NCBI GenBank assembly: GCA_964408485.1
Contig: CAYOZJ010000001.1
Location: forward strand, 28,366-92,365
DNA length: 64,000 nt
Reading direction: 5' to 3'
Source of the DNA: an uncultured Gammaproteobacteria bacterium
GTDB taxonomy: Bacteria; Patescibacteriota; Microgenomatia; Levybacterales; UBA12049
Under the pieces are notes generated by a model that worked only from the letters and a program-made list of their open reading frames with translations, made no database searches and was not told the origin of the DNA. Below, piece after piece: positions 10,247-54,003 of the stretch (the stretch's first letter is position 1; each line of letters starts with the position of its first letter). The position numbers and the translations under genes were made by a program.

Positions 10247-10280
10247 ACATGATTCTTAATTCATACTTCTTGATTCTACG

Positions 10281-22360: not shown

Positions 22361-23389
22361 TCAGTCGCGCATTGCAAGCCCAGCAGCAATTGCATACTCC
22401 GGAGCATTATCAATAATATCTTTTGGCACCTCCTGCGGGACAAGAAGCTTCCATGGATTGATTATTGCTGTCTCAACATTCGTATTTGCTGTAAAATAGG
22501 TTGCAAGACCAGGAAGCTTAGCCGATCCTCCAGCTAAAATAATTTGTTTAATTGGATCATCAGCATATTTTGTATTATAAAAAGCCAATGCCTTTCTGAC
22601 TTCAGTGAGAATACTGGAAAGAATTGGCTCGGTTACTTTACCAATTTTTCCACCTAATGCGCTATCTGCAAGCCCATATGCTTTCTTGTACTCCTCAGCT
22701 TGCTGCATAGCAAAACCTAAATCCGCTGCTATTGCCCGAGAAATTGCCACCCCTCCTGTTGCAAGAGAAAAGGTAAAGACCAAAACACCATTCTTAATAA
22801 TTGCCAACGATGTACTCATTGCGCCAATATTGACAATAAGTGTTGCAGGAAAATGGTCATCGGTAATAACAGCACGTGTTAGGGAAATAATCTCTGTCTC
22901 CACAGCATTAAGGGTAAGTCCTGCGATACCCAAAATTTTTTCATATCTTTCAATAAGTCCTGTTGGTGCACCAACAAGCAAAACCTGCATAAGTGCGCCT
23001 GCTTCTTTTGTTGTCGGGCGAGAAAGCACTTTATAATCAAGGGTTATGGTTGTTAACGGAACAGGAATATATTGCTCTGCCTCCCAATAAATAGCTGATG
23101 CCAACTCTTTATCAGAAAGTGTTGGTATTTCTATAACTTTTGTATAAACCTGATTTTCAGGAAGAGCGACAGTAACATACCTTGTAGAGATTTTTGCTTC
23201 ACTGACTAAGGTCCGTATTGCTTTTGCCATTTCCTCTTGATCAAGAGGGGATTCTGACATAATTCCCCTTTGAGGAGCGGGCATAACAAGCGCAGACGAC
23301 AAGAAAAAACCATTGGTGTCTTTTGCAAGCCAAACTGCTTTTATTGCATGCGTACCGATATCAAGACCGAATGCTTTTTGTTTTGTCAT
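22361..23389 (-). CDS. pilM: type IV pilus assembly ATPase-like protein PilM
   Basis: Actin-like fold (FGLDIGTHAIKAV...). 4-nt overlaps with neighbours indicate an operon. Confidence 0.85.
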   Translation of the reverse strand: MTKQKAFGLDIGTHAIKAVWLAKDTNGFFLSSALVMPAPQRGIMSESPLDQEEMAKAIRTLVSEAKISTRYVTVALPENQVYTKVIEIPTLSDKELASAIYWEAEQYIPVPLTTITLDYKVLSRPTTKEAGALMQVLLVGAPTGLIERYEKILGIAGLTLNAVETEIISLTRAVITDDHFPATLIVNIGAMSTSLAIIKNGVLVFTFSLATGGVAISRAIAADLGFAMQQAEEYKKAYGLADSALGGKIGKVTEPILSSILTEVRKALAFYNTKYADDPIKQIILAGGSAKLPGLATYFTANTNVETAIINPWKLLVPQEVPKDIIDNAPEYAIAAGLAMRD

Positions 23390-24258
23390 TTTGGTGAAAA
23401 AATTGAAAAGAAAAATTCTGAAGGCACACTATCGTATCCCTGAAAGAAGCTTATTTTTCTAACAGTTTGCGTATCGCTTCCTCCTGCCGTACCAGTCGAG
23501 GTAATAATTTTTCCTTGAATAGGTAACCCTGCACCTTTTATGCCAATTGTCCCTGCTTTGTATAAAGGAATTACTCGCGCAAGAAGACCGCTTGTCACAT
23601 CTATTTGCATACGGTAGTTAAATGTCGCACTTCCATTTATTCCATCAACAACAAATGCTCCTGCTGCAGAGGTAGGACACGATCCTCCAGCCCCAACAGC
23701 ACAGAATGAATTAACAGAGCGTCTTGTTGCACACTGGTCAAATGCATACTTTTTAAGCGTTGGGCTAAGCCGTGTACCAGAAATGACTAATACTTCCATT
23801 GCAGGATCACTACATCCATCGGTATTTGTTCCCCAATGAACAGTAAGTGTTCCATTCCAGGCTGTTTGGAAAAGCTGAGAAGGGGTATCTGTGTGAGGGG
23901 AAAGCCATACATCGGTCCCATCATCTTGAAATACAGGATTTCCATTATTAAGGAGAAATTGACTTCCATCGATAAGAGAAATGTCCACATTGCTAATTTG
24001 TGAATTATTTTTATCATGAAGTGATACATCAGAGAGAATAGCCGCACCATTCGTGTCGCCTAATTTTACAGCCTGTTCAACACCAGCTTCTGCTGCAGAA
24101 AATGCAGCCTGCGATGCAGCTTCATCTGTTGAATTACGAAGATTGGTAATACTCCGGGAAGCAAGAGACAATCCAACGGTTAAAACAATCACCATAACAA
24201 GTACGACAATAAGAAGTGCTTGGCCCTTTTCTGATAATCTCTGGGCTTTCTTATCCAT
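23386..24258 (-). CDS. PilX-N-domain minor pilin-like protein
   Basis: N-terminus KGQALLIVVLVMVIVLTVGLSLASRS resembles the PilX N-domain family rather than a class III signal. Confidence 0.5.
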   Translation of the reverse strand: MDKKAQRLSEKGQALLIVVLVMVIVLTVGLSLASRSITNLRNSTDEAASQAAFSAAEAGVEQAVKLGDTNGAAILSDVSLHDKNNSQISNVDISLIDGSQFLLNNGNPVFQDDGTDVWLSPHTDTPSQLFQTAWNGTLTVHWGTNTDGCSDPAMEVLVISGTRLSPTLKKYAFDQCATRRSVNSFCAVGAGGSCPTSAAGAFVVDGINGSATFNYRMQIDVTSGLLARVIPLYKAGTIGIKGAGLPIQGKIITSTGTAGGSDTQTVRKISFFQGYDSVPSEFFFSIFSPK

Positions 24259-24369
24259 ATACTCATGATATATATCTGAAATTGAGGTGTCAACAAAGTG
24301 AATGTAGTACGTATTAGGTAGTATGTTTTACGCAATAAGATACTTTATTTATACAAAACTTTATACATA

Positions 24370-24963
24370 CTACCTATTTATATTTCGTATACCAATTGAT
24401 GTCTGGAAAACAACAGCGCTTTGAGAAGCAAGTTGCTCTGCAAACGTACTGCTTGATGATTGTTGCAGCGAAAAGTTTATTAAAATAACTGGTAAGTCAG
24501 AATTGCTTTCTTGAGAACAAGTGAATGAACATGATTTCAATGAAACCTGTGATGTATCCAGCAGACTTGCACCATTTGATGATATTGTTGAACTTGTACA
24601 CGCGTAGGTTATTTGCTGATTATCAGGCGTAAGAAGAGAAATAGAATTTGCCGTTACCGGTGGACTGCAGGGAAAAGGAGTCACCAAACCTCTCGCATCC
24701 CGAATAGTTTTAGCCATTTGTGAAAGAGTATAATTTCCATTATTTTGCACAAGTGTAACAATATCTGTTTTATGGGATGTTCTAAATGTTGTTACGAGAA
24801 TACTAAATACGATCGATCCAACGACAATAAAAATTGCAATAACGGCAAGCATTTCAACAAGAGTAAACCCACGCGAAGAGCATAGGGCGAAGGGTCTAGG
24901 GCACAGAATGTCCTTATTCTTTTTAACTCTATGCTCTGTGCTATATGCTCTATGCTTTTTCAT
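24370..24963 (-). CDS. prepilin-type N-terminal cleavage/methylation domain protein (pseudopilin)
   Basis: RGFTLVEMLAVIAIFIVVG class III signal motif. Confidence 0.7.
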   Translation of the reverse strand: MKKHRAYSTEHRVKKNKDILCPRPFALCSSRGFTLVEMLAVIAIFIVVGSIVFSILVTTFRTSHKTDIVTLVQNNGNYTLSQMAKTIRDARGLVTPFPCSPPVTANSISLLTPDNQQITYACTSSTISSNGASLLDTSQVSLKSCSFTCSQESNSDLPVILINFSLQQSSSSTFAEQLASQSAVVFQTSIGIRNINR

Positions 24964-25508
24964 GGCGTTGGAAAAACAGTGAAATCAGAAAAACATGTAG
25001 ACAGTGTTACAGAGTGACAAAAAGGATTTAATGTGTCTTGGCATTTTGGATCATACCATGATGTCCTAACAGTTATCTTAACGTTTGCTGATAGCGCATT
25101 TACTTGACCATTTGGCGTAGGACTTACATTACAATCAGCAGAATCATGCTCGACAACAACTTCCCGTACAAATTTATCAACATTTTGACCACAACTTGTG
25201 GTTTTCACCCAACATTGTGCGTTATTACTATCAAGATCAGAGCAGGCTTTTGCCAAACAATATGTATCGTCTGGTAATAATTCTGCCGAGATTGATGCAA
25301 TATTTTCATTGCGCATATCACGAATCAGCTCAATTCCAGCTTGTGTATATTGTGTTGCAATATTTTGGTCTCTCGCAAAGTCACTATTATTTAACGCACT
25401 AAGTGATGCGCTAACAATTGCCCCAATAATAACAACTGCTGCCGTGAGCGCCACTAACACTTCAATAAGTGTCTGTCCTTTCTCATTTGAAATTTTAAAT
25501 TTCATCAC
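24960..25508 (-). CDS. prepilin-type pseudopilin
   Basis: KGQTLIEVLVALTAAVVIIG N-terminal motif. Start overlaps the upstream gene by 4 nt. Confidence 0.65.
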   Translation of the reverse strand: MMKFKISNEKGQTLIEVLVALTAAVVIIGAIVSASLSALNNSDFARDQNIATQYTQAGIELIRDMRNENIASISAELLPDDTYCLAKACSDLDSNNAQCWVKTTSCGQNVDKFVREVVVEHDSADCNVSPTPNGQVNALSANVKITVRTSWYDPKCQDTLNPFCHSVTLSTCFSDFTVFPTP

Positions 25509-26164
25509 TGTATTACTCCTGTTGCAGAAACAGTTGCAATCTTAGTAAACCCATATCCGGTTATACCAATCTGGGGCGTTGCACCTGACGCATTTGTTGT
25601 CACTGCACCAGTAACCGATGAGAAGAAGAAATAGGTTGCTTTTGTTTTACTTGATGTATCAATAGTCACACCCGGATCCTGAATTTTTTTCCCAAGACAA
25701 GTCTGCGTTATTCTTCCTGACCCATCTGAATTCCCATATACTGCTTGTAACTCATAGGTGTTGGTGTTGGTATTACACTGCGCAGATAAACAAAGTGAGC
25801 TAAATGAGCAACAGGCAACTACTTGGTATCCTTCTAATTCGTACCCCTGACCAGTAAATCCATTTGCAAAACAAGTAGTATCGCGAAGTTGGGAAAGCGC
25901 TCGGGATCTGGCAGTAAAAAGGGTTGTCTTAAACTCTTTCATTGCAGTGTCTACCTGCTGAGATCTGCTGTAGCTTACAAATGAGGCAATACCAACAAGG
26001 GAAAGAATTACCATAACAGAAAAAACAATAATAAGCTCTATGAGAGTAAAACCACGCTCATGCTTTGCATGAGAATTTCCAATTTCTAATTTCCAATTTC
26101 TAACAGAAAGTGTTACGGTGTTATTTTTAGAAGAATTTGAAATTTGACATTTGAAATTTGACAT
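25505..26164 (-). CDS. prepilin-type pseudopilin with long leader
   Basis: ERGFTLIELIIVFSVMVIL motif. A ~45-aa leader is encoded by a low-complexity GAAATTTGACATTT tandem repeat. Confidence 0.65.
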   Translation of the reverse strand: MSNFKCQISNSSKNNTVTLSVRNWKLEIGNSHAKHERGFTLIELIIVFSVMVILSLVGIASFVSYSRSQQVDTAMKEFKTTLFTARSRALSQLRDTTCFANGFTGQGYELEGYQVVACCSFSSLCLSAQCNTNTNTYELQAVYGNSDGSGRITQTCLGKKIQDPGVTIDTSSKTKATYFFFSSVTGAVTTNASGATPQIGITGYGFTKIATVSATGVIQ

Positions 26165-26173
26165 TTGAAATTT

Positions 26174-26740
26174 TTATGGGTTATTTTTTGTGTAGTATAC
26201 GCCTGAGGTACATGCACTATCTCCACCTGCAAACGAAGACGTTGAGTCTGTATCTGCTGAATTTTCAAGACATGCAGCAAGAGTATAGGTAGTACCTGTT
26301 GTATCGTAGTAATAACTTCCTACATGGTAATACGTATTACCCAGTGGGTCGCAGGGAATTTTCTGCATATAGGTTGACCCTGAGTAGGTAAAACTAGATG
26401 GAGTAGGGCAGGCAGCACTATTGAGCCTATTTGTCCCACCTTCTGGAGGATAAGTACCAGTATCAGATCTGTATAACTCAAGCGCCGATTGGATTTGTCT
26501 AACGTCAGATTTTCTTTGTGCATCTCTTGCACGCTGTCTAATACCAATAAAATTGGTCATAAGAAGCGTTGAAAGAATACCAATGATCGCAATAACAATA
26601 AGAAGTTCAATAAGAGTAAAGCCAGCGTTGCTGGAAGTTCCAAATCCCAATTTCCAAGAAACAATTAAATTCCAATACCTCAAATTCCACATTGTTTGTA
26701 TCTTGTTTCTTGTTTCTTGTTTCTTGTTCATACAGATCAA
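26174..26740 (-). CDS. type IV major pilin-like protein (paralog 1)
   Basis: NAGFTLIELLIVIAIIGIL followed by ARD..RKSD..QIQSALELYRSDTGTYP, the T4a pilin / GspG-like fold signature. 45-aa leader. Confidence 0.8.
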   Translation of the reverse strand: MICMNKKQETRNKIQTMWNLRYWNLIVSWKLGFGTSSNAGFTLIELLIVIAIIGILSTLLMTNFIGIRQRARDAQRKSDVRQIQSALELYRSDTGTYPPEGGTNRLNSAACPTPSSFTYSGSTYMQKIPCDPLGNTYYHVGSYYYDTTGTTYTLAACLENSADTDSTSSFAGGDSACTSGVYYTKNNP

Positions 26741-26772
26741 TGGTAAATGGTAAATAATAAATCGTCAATGGG

Positions 26773-27416
26773 CTAGGGTGTTGTGTTAGGACTACTAACA
26801 CCATAGTTGCAAGGGTGGTGTTTGCCTGACGCTCCACAATCAACTGCTGCTGGAACGTTACCACATGTGCAGTACGTGAGACTTTCCGGATTATTAATAC
26901 AATTAGAGACCGTGGCTTTGCAAGTTTGTGTGTCATTTGGTCCTTGTTCAATTGACGTATAGAGATAGTATGACTGAGGAGATCCTCCTGGGGCATAGTA
27001 CACATACGTTCTACTAGAATCCGGATCTTTCGGCACAAGATCCATGTATGGCGACCAACCGCCTGATGCTCCCCATCCAAGACTGACACCATTAAAATCT
27101 GTTATGGTGTATGACGAACTGCTTTTTGGATAATTACCATGATCTTGATAATATTGCTCTAATACTCTTTGAATTTGTGCTAAATCAGACTTACGCTCGC
27201 CATCTCGCGCTTTTCTAAATTGCGCAAGGGGATTAAGGGCTGCAAGAGCAAAAACAGCAAGAATTGCTAAGATTCCAATAACGATAATCAATTCTATAAG
27301 AGTAAAGCCAGCGTTGCTGGAAGTTCCAAATCCCAATTTCCAAGAAACAATTAAATTCCAATACCTCAAATTCCAAATTGTTTGTATCTTGTTTCTTGTG
27401 TCTTGTGTCTTCGTCA
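26773..27416 (-). CDS. type IV major pilin-like protein (paralog 2)
   Basis: Leader plus N-terminal helix nearly identical at DNA level to paralog 1. C-terminal domain divergent and Cys-containing. Start placed at MTKTQDTRNK. Confidence 0.8.
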
Positions 27417-27418
27417 TA

Positions 27419-28213
27419 TTAATTAAATGCACAACTTTGACTGCAGTGCTGATCACAATAACAGTGGATATCTCCACCATAGTCTGTACACTGCGTCTTT
27501 GGTGCAATACTATTACATCTATTATCTCCTGTGCATCCATAAAACTGGTCACCAGGGCATGCAAGCGGCGTAGGAGTTGGTGTTATAGTCGGACCACCAC
27601 TGCCACCAGTAACAGTTGGAACTGTATCGCCTTGATTAATAACGTAACTGGCAACTTGGCTACAATCAACACTTCCTGAAATAGTACAGTAATTATAGTT
27701 ATTGGTTCTATACCCATTTGGCACACATGATGTTCGCTGTGCAAGAGGACAAGCATTACTTGGGACAGACGAACTCCGCAGGGCTGAGTACAAGACGTTC
27801 CATTGAGGACAGCTACTCGTTGAGTCAGGCTCATATAAGTAACACTTATCCGAATCACTGCCACAATCAGGATCCTGAGGAACTTTTTCCATATACACAT
27901 GATTATGTACTTTCCAGATCACCCCAAAGGTCAAAGAAGTTGGGTAACATCCAGTATCATTAAAGTAGCTATCAAGTGCCCTTTGAATTTGTCCCAAATC
28001 ATGCTCTCTCTTTCCATCATTTGCTTTATTGTATTGAGCAAGGGGATTAAACGTAGTAATCAGTCCAACAAGAAGAATTCCTAAAATAGCCAAAACAACA
28101 ACTAGCTCAATAAGAGTAAAACCTGATTGATAATGAAACCAACTATACGACTGAGAAAGATTCTTCAAAAACCAAGAATTCTTACTGCGTATTTCCATAA
28201 AAAATCTCCCCAT
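27419..28213 (-). CDS. type IV pilin-like protein with Cys-rich C-terminal domain (paralog 3)
   Basis: QSGFTLIELVVVLAILGIL plus NDGKREHDLGQIQRALDSYFNDTGCYP. About 20 Cys in the C-terminal 120 aa. The start overlaps the pilD 3' end. Confidence 0.8.
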   Translation of the reverse strand: MGRFFMEIRSKNSWFLKNLSQSYSWFHYQSGFTLIELVVVLAILGILLVGLITTFNPLAQYNKANDGKREHDLGQIQRALDSYFNDTGCYPTSLTFGVIWKVHNHVYMEKVPQDPDCGSDSDKCYLYEPDSTSSCPQWNVLYSALRSSSVPSNACPLAQRTSCVPNGYRTNNYNYCTISGSVDCSQVASYVINQGDTVPTVTGGSGGPTITPTPTPLACPGDQFYGCTGDNRCNSIAPKTQCTDYGGDIHCYCDQHCSQSCAFN

Positions 28214-28935
28214 ATTAGTGCTAGTAATGCTCCGAGAAAAAGGAAAGGTCCAAAAGCAATTGTGCTTCCTTTAAATTTCTTTTTCCCTTCTAAAATGAGT
28301 ATGACGCCGCATATACCACCTGTCAAGAAAGCTATATAGTATGCAACAACAATATATGGAAATCCAAGAAGAAATCCTAAAATTGCAACAAGTTTTACAT
28401 CTCCAAACCCCATCCCCCTGCCTTTAGAAAAAAGAAAAATAAGAAAAAGCGGTAAACTAGCCATAATAGCTACAACTAATCGCAAAGGAATCGTTGTGGG
28501 ATCGACAAGGAAAACAGCACACACAACAAGAATTCCAAACACAATAAGCAATGCATCCGACAAGATATGATACTTGATATCCATAATCGCAAGAGCAATC
28601 CCTAGAGAAAACAGTAACGCACTAATTGAATACATACCGAGATGAACCATATCGGTAGGCCACTGAAAAAGAAAAATCCCAATAAAAGCGATGCCAGTGA
28701 GAAGTTCTATGAGAGGGTATTGAAAAGAAAGCTTTTTATGACAATACCTACATTTTCCTCTCAGGAAGGCAAAGGACACAATTGGAATGAGATCAAACGC
28801 AGAAAGAGTATGATGACAAAAATCACAATGTGACCGACCAAAAAGTACTGATTTATTTGCAGGTATTCTATCAATCAAAACATTAAGAAACGAACCCATA
28901 CATAATCCAAAAATAAATAAAAAAAATATTGCCAT
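28165..28935 (-). CDS. pilD: prepilin peptidase (A24 family)
   Basis: N-terminal CxxC...CxxC zinc-binding cytoplasmic domain and polytopic membrane domain (GMGFGDVKL region). Confidence 0.9.
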   Translation of the reverse strand: MAIFFLFIFGLCMGSFLNVLIDRIPANKSVLFGRSHCDFCHHTLSAFDLIPIVSFAFLRGKCRYCHKKLSFQYPLIELLTGIAFIGIFLFQWPTDMVHLGMYSISALLFSLGIALAIMDIKYHILSDALLIVFGILVVCAVFLVDPTTIPLRLVVAIMASLPLFLIFLFSKGRGMGFGDVKLVAILGFLLGFPYIVVAYYIAFLTGGICGVILILEGKKKFKGSTIAFGPFLFLGALLALIWGDFLWKYAVRILGF

Positions 28936-28998
28936 AAAACAACCCTCACCCTTGTATTCCCTCTCCCAAAAGGAGAGGGGGCTTTGTCACGTTACCCA

Positions 28999-30153
28999 TT
29001 ATGCTACCCAATAATTAAGACTATGCATCACAAGAAAAAGTCCTTGTAATAGTAAGCTTATGTAGAGATATGGAAAAGTAATTGTTTCATATTTTTTTTC
29101 ATATGACATAATCGATAAACATACAAATAAAGGAAAAATAATAACCAAATATCTTGTGTATGACATAAAACTACCACCCAAGACGGGCAACAATCCAAAG
29201 CAAAGACTATAAACAAAATATACTGCAGACACTCTTTTTCTCATAAAGAAAAGGGATACAACAAAGGAGAAAAAAAACAGTCTATCAAGCAGGGAATCAG
29301 TAAATCCATGAATATGCAATGGAAAAGTAAACAATGCCTTAAGAAAAAAGAGAGGATTAAAAAGAGAAAAAAATGAATAATGAGAAACAAAATTTTGCTG
29401 TGCGCTAAACTGTGCAAACAAGCTTCCCGCTGTAATATAATAGATGATCATTGCAAGAATAAGCCCAAAAATGGGAAGAAAAAGAAAGAGTGTCTTTTTT
29501 TGTAATACTGTTTTCCCAATAACATGCATTTCGTCATAAAAAGAATGACGAGAATATTCAAGAATATAGGAAAAAAAGAAAGGAATAAGTATCGCAACTC
29601 CAATCAAACGCGTCAACGGAAGGAAGAATGCAACAAGAGATGCTCTGACAAGTTTTTTTTCTTGGAGAAAAAGAAAGAATAAAATAACAAGCAGGAAAAA
29701 CAGACTTTCTGTGTAAATAAGAGAGAAATAAAAACTTGTTGGAAAAGCAAGCAGCAGCAACAGGCTTCTTTTTGCAATTTTTTCGTTGTATTGATTCTTA
29801 ATCAAGAGATAAAACAAGTAAAAGCCGATACAAGAGAAAACATTTGCAAGTACCATCCCTGCAACAAAACTATTTCTTACTATCAACGTTGTGAGAAATA
29901 TAATAAAAGGCAAAAGAGGAGAGAATGCATTAGATTCATCATTTTTATGATATCCTTTCTCGCTTATATAAAGATAGTGCTGTGCATCCCATGTTTTATA
30001 TGAAGTGACAAGTGAAATTTGTTCGCGTATTGGATACGTAAAATTTGCAAAATATGTTGGTGCATTAAATGGTAAAAGAGAAAAACAAAGAAAAATAAAA
30101 ACAACAATACAAATTTTTACTGACAGAATAATAAAAATTATATCTCGTTTCAT
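28999..30153 (-). CDS. polytopic membrane protein, putative GT-C-fold glycosyltransferase
   Basis: About 11 predicted TM segments and a WDAQHYLYISEKGY motif in the first extracytoplasmic loop, reminiscent of GT-C mannosyltransferases. Functional assignment is inferential. Confidence 0.45.
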   Translation of the reverse strand: MKRDIIFIILSVKICIVVFIFLCFSLLPFNAPTYFANFTYPIREQISLVTSYKTWDAQHYLYISEKGYHKNDESNAFSPLLPFIIFLTTLIVRNSFVAGMVLANVFSCIGFYLFYLLIKNQYNEKIAKRSLLLLLAFPTSFYFSLIYTESLFFLLVILFFLFLQEKKLVRASLVAFFLPLTRLIGVAILIPFFFSYILEYSRHSFYDEMHVIGKTVLQKKTLFLFLPIFGLILAMIIYYITAGSLFAQFSAQQNFVSHYSFFSLFNPLFFLKALFTFPLHIHGFTDSLLDRLFFFSFVVSLFFMRKRVSAVYFVYSLCFGLLPVLGGSFMSYTRYLVIIFPLFVCLSIMSYEKKYETITFPYLYISLLLQGLFLVMHSLNYWVA

Positions 30154-30162
30154 ACAATAGGT

Positions 30163-32196
30163 TTATTTACTTGATACTCCAAGCGTATCTTTTGACGCTG
30201 ACAATGCCTTTTGAAAGTCTTTGCGATAGAGTTGGGTATAGGCGATACTTACCTCACTTGCTCTTTTTTTATCTTTAAAACAATTCAGATACATAGTATA
30301 TAAGAGAAAGTATGGTGTTTCTTGATACTGGTTGAGTGCTAGTGATTGAGAAAGATTATCTGCTGCATAGCCACATTTTCCAGCAATTCCAGAATATAAA
30401 ACTCCCAACGCGCTATATGCTTTATCATTATTCGGCTCAATATCGCGGGCTTTTTTATAGAAAGAAAGCGCGCTATCTGTATCTTGATAGCGTGTATAGA
30501 TAAAGGTTCCAGTAGCAATAAGTGAATTACTATACGCATTGGGGATTTCCGCAATTGTTAGGCTATGAGCAACAGGATTTTTTCTTTCTTCAATTGTTGG
30601 AGCATGAAGCGTTGACCAAATAGAACCAACTTGCATTTCGTAACTTTTTTTGTCGGGGAGACGATCTACATCTTGATACATTTCAAAAACAAGTCCGAAA
30701 GGTACCCATATAAGTTTTTCGCCTGTTTTGGGTTGAAATTGAGTTGTTGAAAAAATTCGCCGTGTGCTACTCATCGAACGGACTATCTTTATTAGTGCTT
30801 CTGTTCTATTTTTCGAGCTAACTCCTTTAAGACCATCTGCAATACTATTGTGCGTTACAGGTGTTGCCCCTATATTATAAAGGAGAATGTCTGGCCGGTC
30901 ATGAAGCGCGTAATGCACATACCATGTATTAAAAATTTGTGTATCCCCAGATATAAGAAGTACAGCATTACGCGGCAATGGATCGAGAAAGTCTTTCGCG
31001 TAGGTATCGCCAATCATAAGGGATGCAAGATTTGTCTTAGGGGTATTATAGACAAAAAGCATGAGCGGAATGAAAAGAAAAAGACAGGTAAAAAGAACTT
31101 CATAATGACGTTTGGGTAAAAAGCTTGCAAGACGCACAGTAAATACATAAAGGCCAATTCCAAAAGGAATAAGAAAAATCACCGTTGAAAGTAAGGTAAA
31201 TCGTTCGTATGCACCAATAATAAAACTGCTTGTTAAAGGAAATCCTGCATACATCAAAAAAACTGGACCAGAAAGCAACCACGCAAGAAATAGTGACGTG
31301 AAGAGTATTTTATCCTTTTTGAAAATGTGCCAAAACCCAAGAAAAGTAAGTACTATCGTTGGAATTGTTAACTGAAATAAAAGATACTGTACATAAAGCC
31401 ATAAGGTAACAAGGCGTTGCGCAAAGGAAGGCGTATCAAAAATACCAGCTTGAAAGGTACCATAATCTTTCCGGAGAATTAAATGAAAAAAGGAGGGAAT
31501 ATCATGAACTGAATCCCAATTAATAATTGGGTTATGGGCAGATGCAATAAAAATATATAAGAAAGGTGTTAATCCAAGAACAAATGATAAAAGCAAAAGA
31601 AGAATCAATAACATATTCTTTTTTATCTGAAGAAATAATTGTTTCCCAATTAATAGAAAAAGTGATGGAACGATAAGAATAATTGTTGAATGATGCGTAG
31701 AGGCAAGTCCGAGGCAAAAAAAGAAAAGATACAATACGGGTCCTTTTTTACTTTGACGAAAAAGAAGCGCCAAAAGAAATAGCACAAGCGCAAAGAATGT
31801 ATTTAACATAAATACTTCAGCAACTTCCGCATAAAACCAATAGAGAAAAGAGAATCCAAGAATGAGTGATGCAACAACACTGTTTAATGAATTTTTTGTA
31901 AGTTGCTTGGTAAAAAGATAAAAACATACAACGCCACCTGCTCCCGCAAATGCAGAAATTAACCCAACGGCAAATGCAGGAGAAATACGAGCAAGAATGG
32001 AATGAGTTAGTAAAAATCCTAGAAAGGTGAATAACGGATATCCTGAAGGGTGAGCAACTCCTCCAACGCTTGCTGCTGTTACTAAGTCGCCAACATCTCC
32101 TCCATAAATACTTCTCGAGAGATGACTAACGTAAAGCAGCAAAAATCCACTAAACAAAAATGTGGGCAGGATAATTTTCTTAACTAAAGAGAGCAT
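30163..32196 (-). CDS. DUF2723/TMEM260-like GT-C membrane protein with C-terminal TPR repeats
   Basis: N-terminal polytopic domain with GGDVGDL...HPSGYPLF loop, then a soluble C-terminal TPR region (YKKARDIEPNNDKAYSALGVLY...). Confidence 0.55.
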   Translation of the reverse strand: MLSLVKKIILPTFLFSGFLLLYVSHLSRSIYGGDVGDLVTAASVGGVAHPSGYPLFTFLGFLLTHSILARISPAFAVGLISAFAGAGGVVCFYLFTKQLTKNSLNSVVASLILGFSFLYWFYAEVAEVFMLNTFFALVLFLLALLFRQSKKGPVLYLFFFCLGLASTHHSTIILIVPSLFLLIGKQLFLQIKKNMLLILLLLLSFVLGLTPFLYIFIASAHNPIINWDSVHDIPSFFHLILRKDYGTFQAGIFDTPSFAQRLVTLWLYVQYLLFQLTIPTIVLTFLGFWHIFKKDKILFTSLFLAWLLSGPVFLMYAGFPLTSSFIIGAYERFTLLSTVIFLIPFGIGLYVFTVRLASFLPKRHYEVLFTCLFLFIPLMLFVYNTPKTNLASLMIGDTYAKDFLDPLPRNAVLLISGDTQIFNTWYVHYALHDRPDILLYNIGATPVTHNSIADGLKGVSSKNRTEALIKIVRSMSSTRRIFSTTQFQPKTGEKLIWVPFGLVFEMYQDVDRLPDKKSYEMQVGSIWSTLHAPTIEERKNPVAHSLTIAEIPNAYSNSLIATGTFIYTRYQDTDSALSFYKKARDIEPNNDKAYSALGVLYSGIAGKCGYAADNLSQSLALNQYQETPYFLLYTMYLNCFKDKKRASEVSIAYTQLYRKDFQKALSASKDTLGVSSK

Positions 32197-32202
32197 GAGA
32201 GC

Positions 32203-32763
32203 CTATTGCGAGCACCAATAGCAGGCAGTTGATGTTGGATTACAATCTCCAGTTGGTGAGTGTGGCGAACCATCTCTATTAAATTTAGCATTTGGATCCG
32301 ACCTTTGAGCTTTTGATTGTGGTTGGAAGCAGGCGGTAATATCGGTATCTGTTCCACTGACAATGATACTAGTTAATACACTCGTTACTGTCGTGAAGGC
32401 AGCCTTAATCTCTCCATCTGACACAAGACTACTCAAGCAAGTTACCAAATCAGGATTAAGAGACAATGACGTTGGATTATTATTGCCATTACACCCATTA
32501 TGCCATGGCATACTGTTATGAGTTGTGTAGTAGCGAATATTTGCATCAATAAATTCAACCGCAGTATTTTTAGTGTTCGCATCATTTGCTTTCTTAAGCT
32601 GCTCGAATGGATCAATAGTTGCAACAAGCGCTGCAGCCAAAACACCTAAAATACCAATAACAACAAGGAGTTCGATAAGGGTAAAACCCTTTTGTGAAGA
32701 AATATGAAAACTCCTTAGGAGTTTGGACAGTTTTTTCATGAATCTATACTTTAAGTTAAACAT
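32203..32763 (-). CDS. type IV pilin-like protein
   Basis: KGFTLIELLVVIGILGVLAAALVATI class III signal and N-terminal helix. Start may be the second Met (MKKLSKLL). Confidence 0.75.
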   Translation of the reverse strand: MFNLKYRFMKKLSKLLRSFHISSQKGFTLIELLVVIGILGVLAAALVATIDPFEQLKKANDANTKNTAVEFIDANIRYYTTHNSMPWHNGCNGNNNPTSLSLNPDLVTCLSSLVSDGEIKAAFTTVTSVLTSIIVSGTDTDITACFQPQSKAQRSDPNAKFNRDGSPHSPTGDCNPTSTACYWCSQ

Positions 32764-32885: not shown

Positions 32886-33397
32886 TGCGTCACCATGATA
32901 CACTTTTTACATATAATAAAAGCAGAGAAAGCAGTTCACCTAACCAACAAGGTCCTCCTTCCACAAATGAAAAGCAAAAACTCCACCATCTCATGAATAG
33001 ATCTCAAACACCACTGCTAGAAGTTACTACGGTTTTTCCTTTTGACTTGTTTCCTGACACGATTGTTATTGATGCAACCAAAGTACATATTATTGATAGG
33101 GAATTTTTCTTCACTGAAGAGATTCACAGTATCCCTATTAAAAATATCGTTGATATTTATGTCGATACAGGACCATTTTTTGCAACTCTTCGAATACTTC
33201 CTCAATTGATATTTCAAAACCAAATTACACAAATTCCAAAACTATGGAAATCAGATGCGATGAAAGCAAGAGATGTCATCCAAGGACTTATTCTTGCAAC
33301 AAAAGAAAATATTAATGTGACAAATCTGCCTGATGAGGTAGATACAGATCAACTGCAGCACGACTTACAATCACTGGGACGACCTCAGCCTCATTGA
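32886..33397 (+). CDS. hypothetical protein (about 170 aa), only plus-strand gene inside the pilus locus
   Basis: ATG at 32886. The ORF-track 5' extension overlaps the pilin on the opposite strand and was discarded. No family recognised. Confidence 0.35.
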
Positions 33398-34593
33398 ATA
33401 CTTGAAGTAAGGTTATAAATTGGAGTAATGATTGAAATAATCAGAAAAGATACGCCAATACCCAACACGATCATAATAAATGGTTCCATTGCCGTTGTTA
33501 ATGTTTTGACTGTCCCATCAACTTCACGCTCAAAGTACTCACTGACTTTAAGGAGCGATTCATCTAATTTTCCTGTTTGCTCGCCAATTTTTACCATTTG
33601 GACAAGAATGGGAGGAAAAATATCAAATGCATTCATAGCGTCCCCAATAGTAACGCCTTTTTCAACGCGCTTGGAAATCTCCTGAATTGCACTTCGATAG
33701 ATAACATTTCCTGTCGTATCAGCTGATTCATTTAATGACTGGACAACAAGCGTCCCTGCACTTATAAGAAGACCAAATGTACGGGTAAATTCAGCCATAA
33801 TGGTCTTTTTGATGAGATTACCAAAAACAGGAAGACGAAGCTTAATTCCATCGGTAATCAGTTTTCCTGAATCAGTTTTTCGCCATCTGTTATATGCAAC
33901 GCCAAACAAAATAACCATGCCCAAGATTAACGGCCAAAATCCAATGGTGAAATCAGAAACACTTACCATAAACTGTGTCGTGGGAGGCAAGGGAATATTG
34001 AGATTTTGGTACAAAACAGTTAATTGAGGAATAACAAAAATCATCATAACAAACATAACAACAACCATAAGGACAACAACAATAACAGGATAGGTAAGAG
34101 CAGACTTAATTGTCGCTTGCAATTTTTGTTGCTTCTCCAAGTTATCAGCAAGCCGCAAAAGTACTTTATCTAAAAATCCAGAAGATTCTGCAGCACGAAT
34201 AAGAGAAATGTAAATCGGATTAAAAATCTTCGGATACTTGGCAATTGCATCGGCAAATGTTTTTCCTTCTTGGACATCTCCTATAAGGCTATTTACCACT
34301 TGCTTCATCGCAGGATTCTGAACTTGTTCTTTTAAAATATTGAGCGCCTGCATAAGTGTTAGACCGGAGGAGAGAATGGATGACAATTGTCTTGTAAATA
34401 AAACCAAATCTTCTGTTGAAGATTTTTGAAAAAGTTGGGAAAAAGAAAAACTATTCGTTGCAATTTGCCTCACAGAAAGTGGCAACATACCTTTCCCTCT
34501 TAGAAATCCCACAGCCTCATTAACATCTCTTGCTTCCAAAACACCCTGGGTTATTTTGCCATCCTTGCTGGTCGCGCGGTACGTTATTTTCAT
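33391..34593 (-). CDS. pilC: type IV pilus platform protein PilC (GspF family)
   Basis: Two GspF-type repeats and three TM segments. Confidence 0.9.
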   Translation of the reverse strand: MKITYRATSKDGKITQGVLEARDVNEAVGFLRGKGMLPLSVRQIATNSFSFSQLFQKSSTEDLVLFTRQLSSILSSGLTLMQALNILKEQVQNPAMKQVVNSLIGDVQEGKTFADAIAKYPKIFNPIYISLIRAAESSGFLDKVLLRLADNLEKQQKLQATIKSALTYPVIVVVLMVVVMFVMMIFVIPQLTVLYQNLNIPLPPTTQFMVSVSDFTIGFWPLILGMVILFGVAYNRWRKTDSGKLITDGIKLRLPVFGNLIKKTIMAEFTRTFGLLISAGTLVVQSLNESADTTGNVIYRSAIQEISKRVEKGVTIGDAMNAFDIFPPILVQMVKIGEQTGKLDESLLKVSEYFEREVDGTVKTLTTAMEPFIMIVLGIGVSFLIISIITPIYNLTSSIQ

Positions 34594-34595
34594 GA

Positions 34596-35675
34596 TTATC
34601 CAACCATTCGAAGTAATTCGTCAGGATGCAAGCTGTAGGATTTTGCTGTATCAAGACTAATTGCTCCTGACAAGACGAGTTGAGAAAGAGAATTGTCTAA
34701 AGCAATCATGCCAACATCTTGTGACGTTTGAATAATTGAGTCTATAAGATGCGTTTTGCCATCTCGTACGTTACTTGCAACTGCTGGTGTCCCAACAAGT
34801 ATCTCAACTGCGGGAATTCGTCCTCCAGAGATTTGAGGAATAAGCCTTTGCGAAATAATGCCCTTTAACGTAAAGGAAAGTTGTGTACGAATTTGAGACT
34901 GTTGGTGCTCTGGAAAACTATCAATTATTCTATCAATTGACTGTGATGCAGAATTTGTATGCAAGGTAGATAAAACCAAATGACCAGTCTCAGCAATTGT
35001 CATTGCAGCAGCCATTGTGTCCGGATCTCGCATTTCTCCAATTAAGACAACGTCTGGATCTTCACGAAGAGCACTTCTGAGAGCCATTGTCCATGAATGA
35101 GTATCTGTCTTCATTTCGCGCTGAGAAATGATACTTTTCCCATTTGGATAAACATATTCAATTGGGTCTTCAATAGTTAATATATGACTACTTCTCGTCA
35201 TATTAATTTCATTAATCATTGAGGCAAGCGTTGTTGATTTTCCTTGTCCTGTTGGGCCAGTTACCAAAATAAATCCTTGACGTAGATTAGCGAAGTTATG
35301 ACAAATTCTTGGTAAATGTAAATCTTCGATTGTTTTGATTGTTTTGGGCAAAAAACGGAAAGCAGCACATAATTGACCTCTTTGGTAATATGCATTCACA
35401 CGAAATCTTCCTAGGTCTCCATAAATTCCTCCACCATATGGCATGGAAAAATCAAGCTCTTTATTTGCTACTAATAAATCTTTTTGCTCAGCAGAGAGCA
35501 AAGTAAAAAGCATACTCGTCACACTTTCCGAACTTAACGCTGCAATCGATGCAACATAGGAAAGGGCACCATCAACACGAATTGCTGGAGGAAGTCCAGG
35601 CAATAAATGCAAATCTGATGCATTACTTTTAACGACTAATTCTAATAATTGTTGTAAATCCATAAGTTCGATCAT
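34596..35675 (-). CDS. pilT: twitching-motility (retraction) ATPase PilT
   Basis: Walker A GPTGQGKSTT, Asp box and His box of PilT/GspE ATPases. Length of about 360 aa is typical of PilT. Confidence 0.9.
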   Translation of the reverse strand: MIELMDLQQLLELVVKSNASDLHLLPGLPPAIRVDGALSYVASIAALSSESVTSMLFTLLSAEQKDLLVANKELDFSMPYGGGIYGDLGRFRVNAYYQRGQLCAAFRFLPKTIKTIEDLHLPRICHNFANLRQGFILVTGPTGQGKSTTLASMINEINMTRSSHILTIEDPIEYVYPNGKSIISQREMKTDTHSWTMALRSALREDPDVVLIGEMRDPDTMAAAMTIAETGHLVLSTLHTNSASQSIDRIIDSFPEHQQSQIRTQLSFTLKGIISQRLIPQISGGRIPAVEILVGTPAVASNVRDGKTHLIDSIIQTSQDVGMIALDNSLSQLVLSGAISLDTAKSYSLHPDELLRMVG

Positions 35676-35752
35676 CGCCTATCGCAAATAGGTAATCGAT
35701 ATAATTTATTAAAACACAAACTATTACCGATAAGCCATATGCGATATGCCCA

Positions 35753-37594
35753 TCATTCCTGCGCAACGCGCAAAACCTCTTCAATTGTTGTTACTCCCGC
35801 GAGTGCTTTAAGATATCCATCTTGTTTCATTGTTATCATTCCTTCTGCAGTTGCTTGCTTTACGATTGTTTCCGCATCTGCTCGCTGCAAAATAAGATGA
35901 GCAATTTTTTCGGTTACTGTAAGGACTTCAAAAATACCAACTCGGCCAATGTATCCTGAGTCACCGCATTGATTACATCCTTTTCCTTTATAGAGCTTTA
36001 CCTCGCCAGTTGGCATAATCGGTCCCAGATTTGTTTTAATCTCCTCAACAAGCTGAGCAGCTGGAATATAGGATTCCTTACAGGTATCACAAATTTTTCT
36101 AACAATTCTTTGTCCCATAACGGCAGTAATTGTTGAAGCAAGTAAAAATGTCTCTGCGCCTAAATCAATAAGACGAGGGAGAGCACCCGATGCATCGGAG
36201 GTATGAAGGGTGGAGAAGACCAAATGGCCAGTGAGTGCCGCTTGGATAGCCAAATCCGTTGTCTCACCGTCTCGGATTTCTCCAACAAGAATAATATTTG
36301 GATCCTGACGAAGAAAACTACGTAATCCGTCAGCAAACGTTAATCCGACAGCTGGATTAATTTGTACTTGATTTACTCCCTGTATTTCATATTCGACCGG
36401 ATCCTCAAGTGACACAATATTTACGCGCGTTGTATTAAGTTTTGCAAGCACAGCATACAGCGTCGTTGTTTTTCCTGATCCCGTAGGTCCGCAAACAAGA
36501 ATAATGCCATGGGGCCGAAGAATTGCTGTCTCCAACGCCTTAAGAGACAATCCGTTAAGTCCGAGTTCTGGCAAAGTTGGGATACCACCTGATTTTCGAA
36601 GAAGTCTCATCACAATTTTTTCACCGTGTACTGTTGGAAGGACAGAAATACGAAGATCAACTTCTTGATTACCAACTTTAAAATTAAACCTGCCGTCTTG
36701 TGGCATGCGATGCTCATCGATTTTCATTTCCGACAAAACCTTAATACGGGAAATAACTGCTTCTTGTACTGTTTTAGGAAGACTCAACCGGTCATACAAA
36801 ATACCATCAATACGGTATCTCACCCGTACCCTGTCATCCATTGGTTCTATGTGCACATCAGATGCGCGGGAATTTACTGCATACTCAAGAATCGTTGCCA
36901 CAATTTTTGCAATTGGCGCTTCTTTAATAATTTGACCAATCTGGCTACTATCAACTGTTTTAGTTGTATTTTCTTGCTTTAGTGCTTCTGTTTCTTTAAC
37001 AGCTCTCCCAACTTCTCCAACTAATTCTTGTCTGTACTGCGCATTAATTGCATTCTTCACGTCTGTTGGTGTTGAGGCAAAAGTTTTTATGGTAAGTCCT
37101 GTTTTTTGTTGAATAAAGGAAAGTGCATCCAAATCTGCTGGGTTACTCATAGCAACCGAGAGAATTTTCGTCTTATCATCGTAAAGAAATGGAATCAGCT
37201 GAAACCGCTCAACAACGGCACGCGGAATAAAACTTAATGCTTCTGGAGAAAAGGATGCTGTTGCTAAATTAATGTAGGGGACACCAAGCATTTGCGCTTT
37301 GGCCTCAGCAATTTTTGCCTCATCCACTATATGCATTTCATCTAATACTTCGTCCGTTGATCTATTCGTTGTTGCGCTTTTTAATTTTATATCGTCATAT
37401 TGCTCTTTGGTAAGCAAATTTTCTCTGAATAATAAATCAGTAACACTCTCTCCAATAGTAGCTGAGACAGGAGGAGCAGGTTGTACCACTACTGAAGGAT
37501 TAAGAACAGGAGCAGCACCTCCGGCAGAAGAGGGAACAACTGGCACATTTGTTCCAACAGGTTGTGCCTGCGGAACGACTTGCTGATCGGGCAT
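35753..37594 (-). CDS. pilB: type IV pilus assembly ATPase PilB (GspE family)
   Basis: Walker A GPTGSGKTTT, N-terminal GspE_N domain, tetracysteine zinc motif CDTC...CNQC. Confidence 0.9.
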   Translation of the reverse strand: MPDQQVVPQAQPVGTNVPVVPSSAGGAAPVLNPSVVVQPAPPVSATIGESVTDLLFRENLLTKEQYDDIKLKSATTNRSTDEVLDEMHIVDEAKIAEAKAQMLGVPYINLATASFSPEALSFIPRAVVERFQLIPFLYDDKTKILSVAMSNPADLDALSFIQQKTGLTIKTFASTPTDVKNAINAQYRQELVGEVGRAVKETEALKQENTTKTVDSSQIGQIIKEAPIAKIVATILEYAVNSRASDVHIEPMDDRVRVRYRIDGILYDRLSLPKTVQEAVISRIKVLSEMKIDEHRMPQDGRFNFKVGNQEVDLRISVLPTVHGEKIVMRLLRKSGGIPTLPELGLNGLSLKALETAILRPHGIILVCGPTGSGKTTTLYAVLAKLNTTRVNIVSLEDPVEYEIQGVNQVQINPAVGLTFADGLRSFLRQDPNIILVGEIRDGETTDLAIQAALTGHLVFSTLHTSDASGALPRLIDLGAETFLLASTITAVMGQRIVRKICDTCKESYIPAAQLVEEIKTNLGPIMPTGEVKLYKGKGCNQCGDSGYIGRVGIFEVLTVTEKIAHLILQRADAETIVKQATAEGMITMKQDGYLKALAGVTTIEEVLRVAQE

Positions 37595-39540: not shown

Positions 39541-41526
<1,986 letters not shown>

Positions 41527-41665
41527 GTATCATGTATTAAGTATCACGTAGTGTGTACACATTTTCATAATACGTAATACTTGCTACATACTACATCTTG
41601 ATCATGTAGATAAGCAGTAGGTTGCAAAAGAACTATAATATATATATTATAAGAGGAATAAAACT

Positions 41666-42205
41666 ATGCCAGACTTTAATAAAATATTAACACCAGGAAA
41701 AGTAGATGAGGGAATGGTAAATGCAATTGTTGATATTCCGGAGGGTTCTTCTTTAAAAATTGAATATGACCGCGAGCATGGTATGTTTGTGTTAGACAGA
41801 GTAGAACCAGATATTTTTGCAAAACCAGTTAATTATGGTTTTATCCCGGCGACAAAAGATACAGATGGAGACGAATTAGACGTCTTATTGGTAACAGATG
41901 AACCAATCCCAACAGGGACATTGGTACATAGTAAAGTAGTGGGTATTTTTAACTTTGAAGACGATGGGGAAATGGATTACAAAATTGTCTGTGTCCCAGA
42001 AGACGACAGAAATACTGGAGACAGTATTAATTCCCTTGATGATTTAGGTAAACGCTGGCAGCAAAAAATTGAATTCCACTTTGCACACTACAAAGATCTT
42101 AAAAAACCAGGGACAACCAAAGTCTTAGGATGGGGAGATGTTGAAGAAGCAAAAAAAATTATTCATGAGTGCATAGAGCGCTTCCAGAATGAAGGATTTA
42201 AGTAG
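41666..42205 (+). CDS. ppa: inorganic pyrophosphatase (family I)
   Basis: DGDELDVLL and EYDREHG motifs. Sits between gyrB and gyrA. Confidence 0.95.
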   Translation: MPDFNKILTPGKVDEGMVNAIVDIPEGSSLKIEYDREHGMFVLDRVEPDIFAKPVNYGFIPATKDTDGDELDVLLVTDEPIPTGTLVHSKVVGIFNFEDDGEMDYKIVCVPEDDRNTGDSINSLDDLGKRWQQKIEFHFAHYKDLKKPGTTKVLGWGDVEEAKKIIHECIERFQNEGFK

Positions 42206-42335
42206 TAGACGATAGATGATTGATAATAGAAGATGGGTTTGGAAAATAGAAAATTGTTTGTAGAACTTCTACCTTCAATCTTCTAGCTTCTACCACTACT
42301 TTCTATAATCTATTTTCTATCGTCAAATATTTTAT

Positions 42336-49988: not shown

Positions 49989-50065
49989 AGATATTGATGA
50001 TTTATAATTTATTATTTACCATTGACGAAAACTTTTATGGACATATTAATTAGAATATTTTGCGA

Positions 50066-50126
50066 CGTGAAAACTCATGTCGTAAAATGTAACAACCTCT
50101 TAACTTATTCTGCGACGTGAAAACTC
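50066..50126 (+). promoter_or_regulatory. two direct repeats ATTYTGCGACGTGAAAACTC (40-nt periodicity) in the divergent integrase / ORF50148 spacer
   Basis: Copies at 50066-50086 and 50104-50126. Related GTGCGACGTT at 51501-51510 and CGTGAAAAGT / CGTGAAACCT at 51995-52030. Confidence 0.5.
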
Positions 50127-50147
50127 TTTTGTCAACTCTTCTACTTA

Positions 50148-53960: not shown

Positions 53961-54003
53961 AAAATGCTTAGGGCATAGTGCCTAGTGCTTAGAGAAAAAC
54001 TCT

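Follow-up and report, generated by a model that had tools for sequence, protein, structure and literature searches.

Concerted evolution confined to the repeat-built leaders of two tandem prepilin genes in a Levybacteria-like genome

Two neighbouring prepilin genes, which we call B and C, open with a nearly identical segment that encodes a leader of 37 amino acids. They lie in a 64-kb stretch of contig CAYOZJ010000001.1 (assembly GCA_964408485.1), hereafter the window, to which all within-window counts refer. Both belong to a cluster of type IV pilus genes encoded by the minus strand, in which six tandem prepilin genes (D, C, B, A, E, and F) directly follow a gene for a PilD-like peptidase and are followed in turn by PilX-, PilM-, and PilN-like genes. 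Homologs of the cluster are annotated as Patescibacteria or Candidatus Levybacteria, and the source genome appears to be that of a Levybacteria/Microgenomates-like member of the Patescibacteria. The explanation we favor, with a probability of about 0.65, is recent short-tract gene conversion between two old paralogs, the shared module being tolerated, repeat-derived DNA in a leader that is expected to be cleaved off.

The shared tract is sharply bounded. A first-pass annotation, made from the letters of the window, had described near-identical 5' segments in the two genes that encode the same unusually long leader followed by the pilin motif, and both its coordinates and its translation proved correct. 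Positions 26573-26732 and 27259-27418 align at 90% identity across 160 nt in the output of a repeat finder, and within them a block of 80 nt without a mismatch (26610-26689 in B, 27296-27375 in C) occurs twice in the window and was recovered in none of 100 shuffles. With the A of the start codon as position 1 (26731 in B, 27417 in C), mismatches fall at positions 5, 6, 11, 18, and 42, then at 123, 127, 129, and 130, and are dense thereafter, with 4 in positions 1-18, 1 in 19-122, and 35 in 130-200. Beyond the tract, identity falls to 51% over positions 130-200, ungapped, and for the codon-aligned remainder to 44% at the nucleotide and 35% at the amino-acid level. The tract extends from within a heptamer array behind the ATG to codon 5 of the mature pilin (GFTLI). 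The likeness begins at the ATG rather than at 26740, where a TTG start of the open reading frame lies upstream of the start conserved among orthologs. Both leaders read MxKxQxTRNKIQT(M/I)WNLRYWNLIVSWKLGFGTSSNAG↓FTLIEL, with the arrow after Gly(-1), and contain the run IWNLRYWNLIVSWKLGFG.

A four-taxon test compared B and C of the window with B and C of a related locus, L023 (related loci and contigs are given by our L labels, proteins by P labels), in which the leader spans 111 nt and the mature part is taken from codon 7 onward. All 14 informative sites in the leader group by genome, with 0 by orthology and 0 in the third way, whereas in the mature part 61 sites group by orthology, 11 by genome, and 9 in the third way. 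Because leader sites group by genome and mature sites by orthology, the concerted evolution by short-tract gene conversion is confined to the leader, and the proposal of recent gene conversion in the first-pass annotation holds in this form. Module identity is 95% between B and C of the window (99% in the core), 85% between B and C of L023, and 73-81% between orthologous pairs; conversion took place very recently in the window genome and longer ago in L023. Window B and L023-B agree in their 5' array (start MNKKQETRNK), and the array of window C is collinear with that of L005-C, so each 5' end looks native. An independent second case is found in L005/L010, where B and the gene that follows it share a near-identical module: the latter gene opens with the B-type module (52 of 52 visible nt equal L005-B, and 55 of 56 match in L010), and the contig ends there. 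A codon test of GFTLIEL over all paralogs gave a weak excess of same-codon choice within genomes (0.44) over that between genomes (0.38-0.40; permutation p ~0.02), which we set aside as evidence of concerted evolution because differences in codon usage could explain it.

Outside the tract, B and C are ancient paralogs, both GspG-like, whose heads are homologous and vertically inherited. Both match the Pfam family T2SSG (PF08334) and align to each other by BLASTP over their whole length with E = 2e-43, which contradicts the earlier statement that their C-terminal domains are unrelated. Both also carry Pfam N_methyl (PF07963), with the motif ...NAG↓FTLIEL, Gly(-1), Glu(+5), and a hydrophobic helix after it. 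Orthologs of B and of C in syntenic loci share 69-84% amino-acid identity, and the D-C-B-A gene order is kept in seven of seven related loci that contain both genes. The suggestion that variable heads are swapped onto a constant module must thus be turned around: the heads are stable orthologs and the exchanged part is the leader. Nor is the module the constant part, since it is missing from B and C in four of the same seven loci.

The long leader is derived, not ancestral pilin sequence, because the B and C leaders of L001, L003, L007, and L009 are short and mutually unrelated (for example MKLRSNG↓F and MKRTAEFG↓F) and because the median annotated leader measures 11 amino acids in 116 homologs of C and 16 in 118 homologs of B. 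Ortholog leaders have 7-16 amino acids versus 37 in window B and C, and most of the 120 homologs of C that were listed align from the mature part only (83% of the query covered). The module is nevertheless read as a translated leader peptide rather than a 5' untranslated region, because the starts are conserved among orthologs, all module copies are open and in frame (their length differences, 69 nt and 39 nt, are both multiples of three), genes A and F offer no other start codon in frame, and the interval from ATG to Gly(-1) is always filled. The ATG of C lies one base after the stop codon of D (TAA-T-ATG coupling), an arrangement also found in L001. In L001, TTGACC-17-TACCAT-6-ATG stands upstream of both B and A (upstream of 2399 and 2915); together with the corresponding site in the window (Table 1), a promoter-like sequence ending only 6-8 nt before a pilin ATG suggests leaderless or near-leaderless mRNAs. 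The TACCATT array in the window is a duplicated -10 region of the promoter-like site of B. Leaders are expected to be removed after Gly(-1) by the neighbouring PilD-like peptidase.

The same module recurs in related genomes, in every case between the ATG and Gly(-1) of a pilin gene, and in different paralogs from one genome to the next: B and C in the window, B and A in L005/L010, F and A in L013/L014, and C, B, and, shortened, F in L023. The B ortholog of L005 (= L006 = L010) carries it as MSMRKIQDTRNKIQTIWNLKHWNLFVSWKLGFGVSRETG↓F, and the C leader of the same locus consists of the array alone, MKTKQDTRYKIQTG↓F, and is exactly 69 nt shorter. At the head of the F-type pilin of L013/L014 the module has an additional in-frame insert of 39 nt. 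The L014 contig stops inside the module of its A gene (3' end, 3733), and the 3' end of L010 does likewise. A scan of a genome collection with a 22-mer from the conserved arm found L014-L016 and L010-L013, and a 26-mer across the variable loop had no match there; two scans of viral contigs also gave no match, and thus no link to phages. L010 and L013/L014 come from one source metagenome; they may be adjacent pieces of one genome, in which case the module would be present there in B, A, and F. L014 (DASQJJ010000071.1) is labelled Candidatus Eisenbacteria, has a pilin-PilX-PilM locus of Patescibacteria type, and is identical across 1088 nt to a contig from the metagenome that gave L010. It is probably mis-binned.

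Three elements make up the module: a heptamer array rich in A and C, a partner segment rich in G and T in which TTGTTTCTTG lies, and, ending in the Gly codon, a small G+C hairpin (Table 1). The CCAGC-AAC-GCTGG variant of the hairpin is shared with L014-F, and L023-F has a shorter version, CAGC-AAT-GCTG. Window C, L005-B, and L014-F agree completely in two blocks of 33 and 21 nt around the stem arms, which take in the right arm and the flanks of both arms, and the variable stretch between them is where the 39-nt insert of L014-F lies; window B departs by a single substitution immediately 3' of the left stem arm, and the L023 copies are slightly different. Where the amino acid is equal, the codon is also the same between genomes in 78-96% of cases in the leader versus 36-49% in the mature parts, and because leader codons are so much better conserved, the history of the module differs from that of its hosts. 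We rejected the idea of a strongly structured RNA, since folding of the leaders was not significantly better than that of shuffled sequences (z = -1.0 to -1.8 for B and C, and -0.75 to -1.9 for B, C, A, and F together). An Rfam scan of 23000-30000 at E <= 1 returned no match, nor did a leader-alignment profile searched against an index of 5.8 billion proteins.

An exhaustive phmmer search with the leader gave three matches, of which P0122 alone is informative; P0121 and P0123 were discarded because they appear to be translated tandem repeats that have nothing to do with the locus. In P0122, a TMEM260-like protein of 800 amino acids from L019, a 131-nt palindrome that encodes ...FGIWNFKNWSLFDNWDLGFG... 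is present in frame in four or five copies, and with the next gene the number rises to five or six within 3 kb (L019 3580-4775 and 5983-6112). P0122 and the TMEM260-like protein of the window are not close homologs. The L019 copies fold at z = -5 to -7, and the peptide is similar among palindrome copies (IWN[LF]..W[NS]L...W.LGFG). The mRNA sense strand of this palindrome is 7-14 kcal/mol more stable than the antisense strand. A profile of the L019 palindrome matches both window copies (E = 1.4e-7 and 4e-7), L005-B, and L013-F, and also an intergenic palindrome in a Roizmanbacteria genome (L015). The module probably belongs to this L019-type family of dispersed palindromic repeats of Microgenomates. 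We also considered an IS200/IS605-like or repetitive extragenic palindrome (REP)-like origin on account of the hairpin beside TTTAC, and dismissed it because hairpin sequences differ between modules and the orientation is unsuitable.

Repeats also make up other leaders in the cluster. The first-pass annotation had attributed the leaders of A, B, and C to low-complexity tandem repeats, and period-7/14 arrays are indeed found in all three. The gene A leader represents a second module type, composed of a TCAAATT array, a GGAAATT array, and a hairpin, CTCATGC-AAA-GCATGAG; it has a weak nhmmer match to the 3' part of the first type (26034-26096, E = 0.0018). This second type also heads the B orthologs L017-B, P0143, P0146, P0157, and P0167, and occurs partly at gene E of L014; in P0143 the peptide, GNWKLEIGNSHASHEKG, is nearly identical to the gene A leader. 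Since a gene A-type module heads B orthologs elsewhere, the second module also moves between paralog positions. A third type (IYDLRF...LNLKS) is found in C and A of L021 and in D and A of L023. The gene F leader is itself a palindrome of a CATAGAG array and its inverted partner. Its two arms match a 14-nt tandem repeat at 54002-54032, the left arm in reverse complement (27 of 31 nt) and the right arm on the forward strand (20 of 22 nt); that repeat stands at the beginning of a gene for a TPR protein, 29 kb from gene F. The hairpin before Gly(-1) is not general to long leaders, as L021 and L022 are without it.

The 3' end of the module bears on the extent and direction of the exchange. In module alignment columns 132-160 (window 26605-26640 and 27291-27326) two variants can be read. 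Window B and C have CCAGCAANGCTGG followed by GGC TTT ACT, which is the variant of F and A genes elsewhere, and the B and C copies of L005 and L023 have the other, TTCGCGTGAAAC, followed by TTC ACG. Because the 3' variant is linked to the first mature codons, exchanged tracts regularly take in those codons.

Several observations weigh against our interpretation. The presence of the module in B in three lineages suggests copying from B to C, yet the codons at the start of mature B point from C to B or to a third donor, which leaves the direction ambiguous: of the six codons GGC TTT ACT CTT ATT GAA, all six differ from the closest ortholog, L001-B, and five match C of both the window and L001. 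Almost no homology exists between B and C on the 5' side of the ATG, so the 5' junction must fall within a short, imperfect array. The window holds only two copies of the module, with no further partial or silent copies, which, for these 64 kb of the genome, is also the outcome for the silent copies that the first-pass annotation had proposed to look for. Conservation of stem-arm nucleotides between genomes could mean that the module is functional rather than neutral. As for its origin, the likeness to the L019 element is of low complexity (nhmmer bias 11-13 bits), and the window copies fold weakly and are without the outer left arm of that element (positions 1-38).

The resemblance to the L019 palindrome invites the alternative that an active mobile palindromic element, similar to miniature inverted-repeat transposable elements or to Rickettsia palindromic elements (RPEs), inserted independently into the two leaders, so that their identity would reflect recent transposition. 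Such an element would account for multiple copies in frame in L019 genes and intergenic in L015, for the occupation of different paralogs in different genomes, for modules more alike between genomes than their host genes, and for two assemblies that break inside the module. We consider it unlikely all the same. With the outer arm missing, no terminal inverted repeat pair remains; no target-site duplication or flanking direct repeat is visible at either window copy; and the original leader is wholly replaced, with no remnant on either side. The identity moreover continues into the pilin motif (GGC TTT ACT CTT AT), the 5' ends differ as they do in the orthologs, and the module fills exactly the interval from ATG to Gly(-1) each time, which homologous exchange between paralogs explains more simply. 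Selection could instead keep a functional cis-element identical, either a phase switch based on 7-nt slippage or an RNA hairpin or attenuator that co-regulates the pilins. Non-triplet tandem repeats in the 5' coding region of surface-filament genes fit this idea, as does the largely invariant stem region, synonymous sites included, around a loop that varies and takes a 39-nt insert; in A, B, C, and F the U-rich FTLI codons are immediately preceded by a G+C hairpin flagged as terminator-like, and similar hairpins of other sequence occur in L017-B and L014-F. Yet the arrays are short (~4-5 units) and imperfect, the roughly 50 pilin genes examined are all in frame, and five near-identical contig pairs from different samples show no difference in repeat number (the last two comparisons being of consensus assemblies). 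Folding no better than shuffled sequence, the empty Rfam scan, orthologs that mostly do without the module, long leaders of L021 and L022 that have no hairpin, and the absence of compensatory changes in support of a structure make this alternative quite improbable. Somewhat bolder, and doubtful in our estimate, is the notion that interchangeable repeat-built leader modules are cis-regulatory cassettes, in which paralogs with the same module would be co-regulated and gene conversion would re-assign pilins to regulatory classes; the conserved RNA stem and the hairpin before the U-rich FTLI codons would act as an attenuator, or 7-nt slippage as a frame switch. If true, this would add to the control of pili in episymbiotic bacteria a layer not described before.

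Tandem pilin genes with an identical 5' segment, divergent 3' parts, and a conserved N-terminal motif usable as a recombination handle also call to mind antigenic variation, in which alternative heads are joined to a constant leader and N-terminal module. This is very hard to reconcile with two complete genes that each have their own conserved start, with heads that are stable orthologs in fixed order and follow orthology in the four-taxon test, and with the patchiness of the module itself; nor did the window contain truncated or silent copies, an inverted copy, or an invertase-type arrangement. Least probable of all is an assembly artefact in which one copy is chimeric or a collapsed duplicate. 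The source is a metagenome-assembled contig and other assemblies break at the module, but the first 42 nt of the copies contain 5 differences, their flanks are different and unique, the D-C-B-A order matches independent assemblies, and L023 independently has the module in both B and C.

Short-tract gene conversion between B and C would, in our proposal, have overwritten ~105 nt, with the homology for exchange probably supplied by the heptamer array at its 5' end and by the conserved N-methylation motif at its 3' end. The leader would be free to vary because the PilD-like peptidase, to judge from the cleavage motif, is expected to cut it off. The module itself is probably a degenerate translated palindromic repeat, one of a small set that hops between pilin paralogs within the genomes of the clade. 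It is most likely tolerated, essentially selfish or neutral DNA in a disposable protein segment, kept uniform by recombination between neighbours. Positive signs of function were absent among the features examined: fold z-scores are weak, the Rfam scan is empty, repeat numbers are constant, and the pilin genes are in frame.

Table 1. Coordinates of the shared tract, its repeats, and the surrounding pilus genes in the window
Feature	Positions	Strand	Remarks
Putatively converted tract, copy in B (positions 19-122 from ATG)	26610-26713	-	1 mismatch/104 nt vs C copy
Putatively converted tract, copy in C	27296-27399	-	Contains identical block 27296-27375
Heptamer array, 5' end of B leader	26696-26728	-	TTGTTTC (AAGAAAC on coding strand) x4.7, Tandem Repeats Finder
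Heptamer array, 5' end of C leader	27382-27411	-	TTGTGTC (AAGACAC/AAGAAAC on coding strand) x4.3, Tandem Repeats Finder
10-bp stem in B	26655-26664 and 26710-26719	-	Right arm TTGTTTCTTG pairs with CAAGAAACAA in array; folding
10-bp stem in C, equivalent arms	27341-27350 and 27389-27398	-	Folding
Small hairpin CCAGC-AAC-GCTGG, ends in Gly(-1) codon	26622-26634 (B), 27308-27320 (C)	-	Terminator-like scan
Promoter-like TTGACG-17-TACCAT, 8 nt upstream of B ATG (26729-26731)	26740-26768	-	-10 region within TACCATT array 26739-26771
PilB-, PilT-, PilC-like genes	33391-37594	-	
Separate prepilin gene	32203-32763	-	
TMEM260-like membrane protein	30163-32196	-	
384-aa polytopic membrane protein	28999-30153	-	
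Prepilin peptidase, PilD-like	28165-28935	-	Pfam A24_N_bact (3e-33), Peptidase_A24
Prepilin gene D, 26-aa leader, upstream neighbour of C	27419-28198	-	Pfam N_methyl; syntenic across all related loci
Prepilin gene C, 214 aa: 37-aa leader + GspG-like mature pilin	26773-27417	-	Pfam N_methyl (6e-07), T2SSG
Prepilin gene B, 185 aa: 37-aa leader + GspG-like mature pilin	26174-26731	-	Pfam N_methyl (6e-08), T2SSG
Prepilin gene A, 38-aa leader (26051-26164)	25505-26164	-	
Prepilin gene E	24960-25505	-	
Prepilin gene F, 32-aa leader (24868-24963)	24370-24963	-	
PilM-like gene	22361-23389	-	Synteny with Pfam PilM_2 genes of related loci
Period-7/14 arrays in gene A leader region	26074-26103 and 26134-26173	-	Tandem Repeats Finder
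Period-7/14 arrays in window	10252-10277, 24927-24956, 26074-26173, 26696-26771, 27382-27411, 35728-35749, 41524-41550, 42266-42305, 50000-50018, 53965-54028		

The wider cluster is well conserved: the order PilD-D-C-B-A-E-F-PilX-PilM is also present in the independent assemblies L001, L003, L007, L009, L017, and L023. Between a pilin gene and pilD sit the genes for a TMEM260-like O-mannosyltransferase homolog and the 384-aa membrane protein (28999-32196), an arrangement conserved in L003 and L022, and this pair beside pilD may have to do with pilin glycosylation. Period-7/14 arrays in the window are concentrated in intergenic regions and gene 5' ends, with a unit sequence that differs from site to site, and similar arrays encode leaders of 7-amino-acid periodicity in many pilin homologs (for example LTSYVLRLTS, KYQISNKYQ, and IHDLRF). 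A long imperfect inverted repeat at 42200-42330, with arms of ~30 nt, surrounds a CTTCTAC heptamer array just upstream of gyrA (42336-44867). At 49980-50160, two copies of the motif TTGCGACGTGAAAACTC, their starts 54 nt apart, lie in a divergent intergenic region (49988 to 50148) beside a TTTACCATTGACG motif that resembles one upstream of gene B.

A central part in host attachment and DNA uptake is ascribed to the type IV pili of ultra-small Patescibacteria, whose pilins are known almost only from sequence. Our results fit into this picture by presenting the prepilin leader, a segment expected to be cleaved off, as an evolutionary playground, which can grow to 37 amino acids by means of heptamer arrays and palindromic repeats and is exchanged between neighbouring paralogs by gene conversion, with at least three module types circulating among pilin positions in related genomes. 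There is also a practical side, in that automatic gene calling and signal-peptide prediction will go wrong at such starts and assemblies from short reads break in the modules. Should the modules be regulatory or phase-switching, they would open a way into the control of pili in organisms for which manipulation is not yet possible.

Compared with known systems, the locus resembles the concerted evolution of tandem paralogs, with which it shares a sharp near-identical tract, copies that group by genome within the tract but by orthology beyond it, and junctions in short conserved sequences. It differs in that the tract comprises only the leader, expected to be cleaved, and five codons, that the converted sequence is repeat-derived, and that the module also occurs in A and F of other genomes. 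Gene conversion at pilin loci with a constant 5' part is familiar from Neisseria pilE/pilS and Moraxella Q/I, where it is the variable 3' parts that change, either with silent copies truncated at the 5' end as donors or through inversion; here, in contrast, B and C are complete, their 3' parts are stable orthologs, and it is the 5' leader that is exchanged. In Neisseria opa genes, CTCTT coding repeats in the signal-peptide region give phase variation. Our module is similar in placing non-triplet tandem repeats in the leader-coding part of paralogous surface-protein genes, but its arrays are short and imperfect, and the contigs compared contain neither repeat-number variants nor out-of-frame alleles. 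The topic of opa phase variation is reviewed in PMC11868660.

Class III signal peptides provide a further point of reference, with leaders that in characterised systems are short and hydrophilic and have 6-26 amino acids, ~15-30 in type IVb prepilins (PMC4471445). B and C agree with type IVb prepilins in Gly(-1), Phe(+1), Glu(+5), the hydrophobic helix, the adjacent A24 peptidase gene, and the net positive charge of the leader; they depart from them in a leader whose 37 amino acids exceed the quoted ranges and which is Trp-rich and hydrophobic rather than purely hydrophilic, in a GspG/type IVa-like mature part, and in orthologs with leaders of 7-16 amino acids. Their motifs mark them as prepilins still, with an atypical leader. 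The RPEs, the nearest known analogy to the module, are palindromic repeats of ~150 bp inserted in frame in protein-coding genes (PMC10969869). Like them, the module appears to be a short palindromic repeat translated within host proteins, gives a similar peptide between copies, and is found in unrelated hosts (pilins and a TMEM260-like membrane protein) as well as in intergenic DNA. Unlike them, it belongs to another phylum, has no sequence relationship to RPEs, and has 7-nt arrays as its building blocks; its copies in the window are truncated and weakly palindromic, lie in a signal-peptide segment that is expected to be removed, and appear to spread by recombination between paralogs. The Rickettsia case of palindromic repeats translated in genes is thereby extended to a new phylum and to a disposable protein segment. 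Two known phenomena come together at the locus, the concerted evolution of tandem paralogs and the in-frame palindromic repeat.

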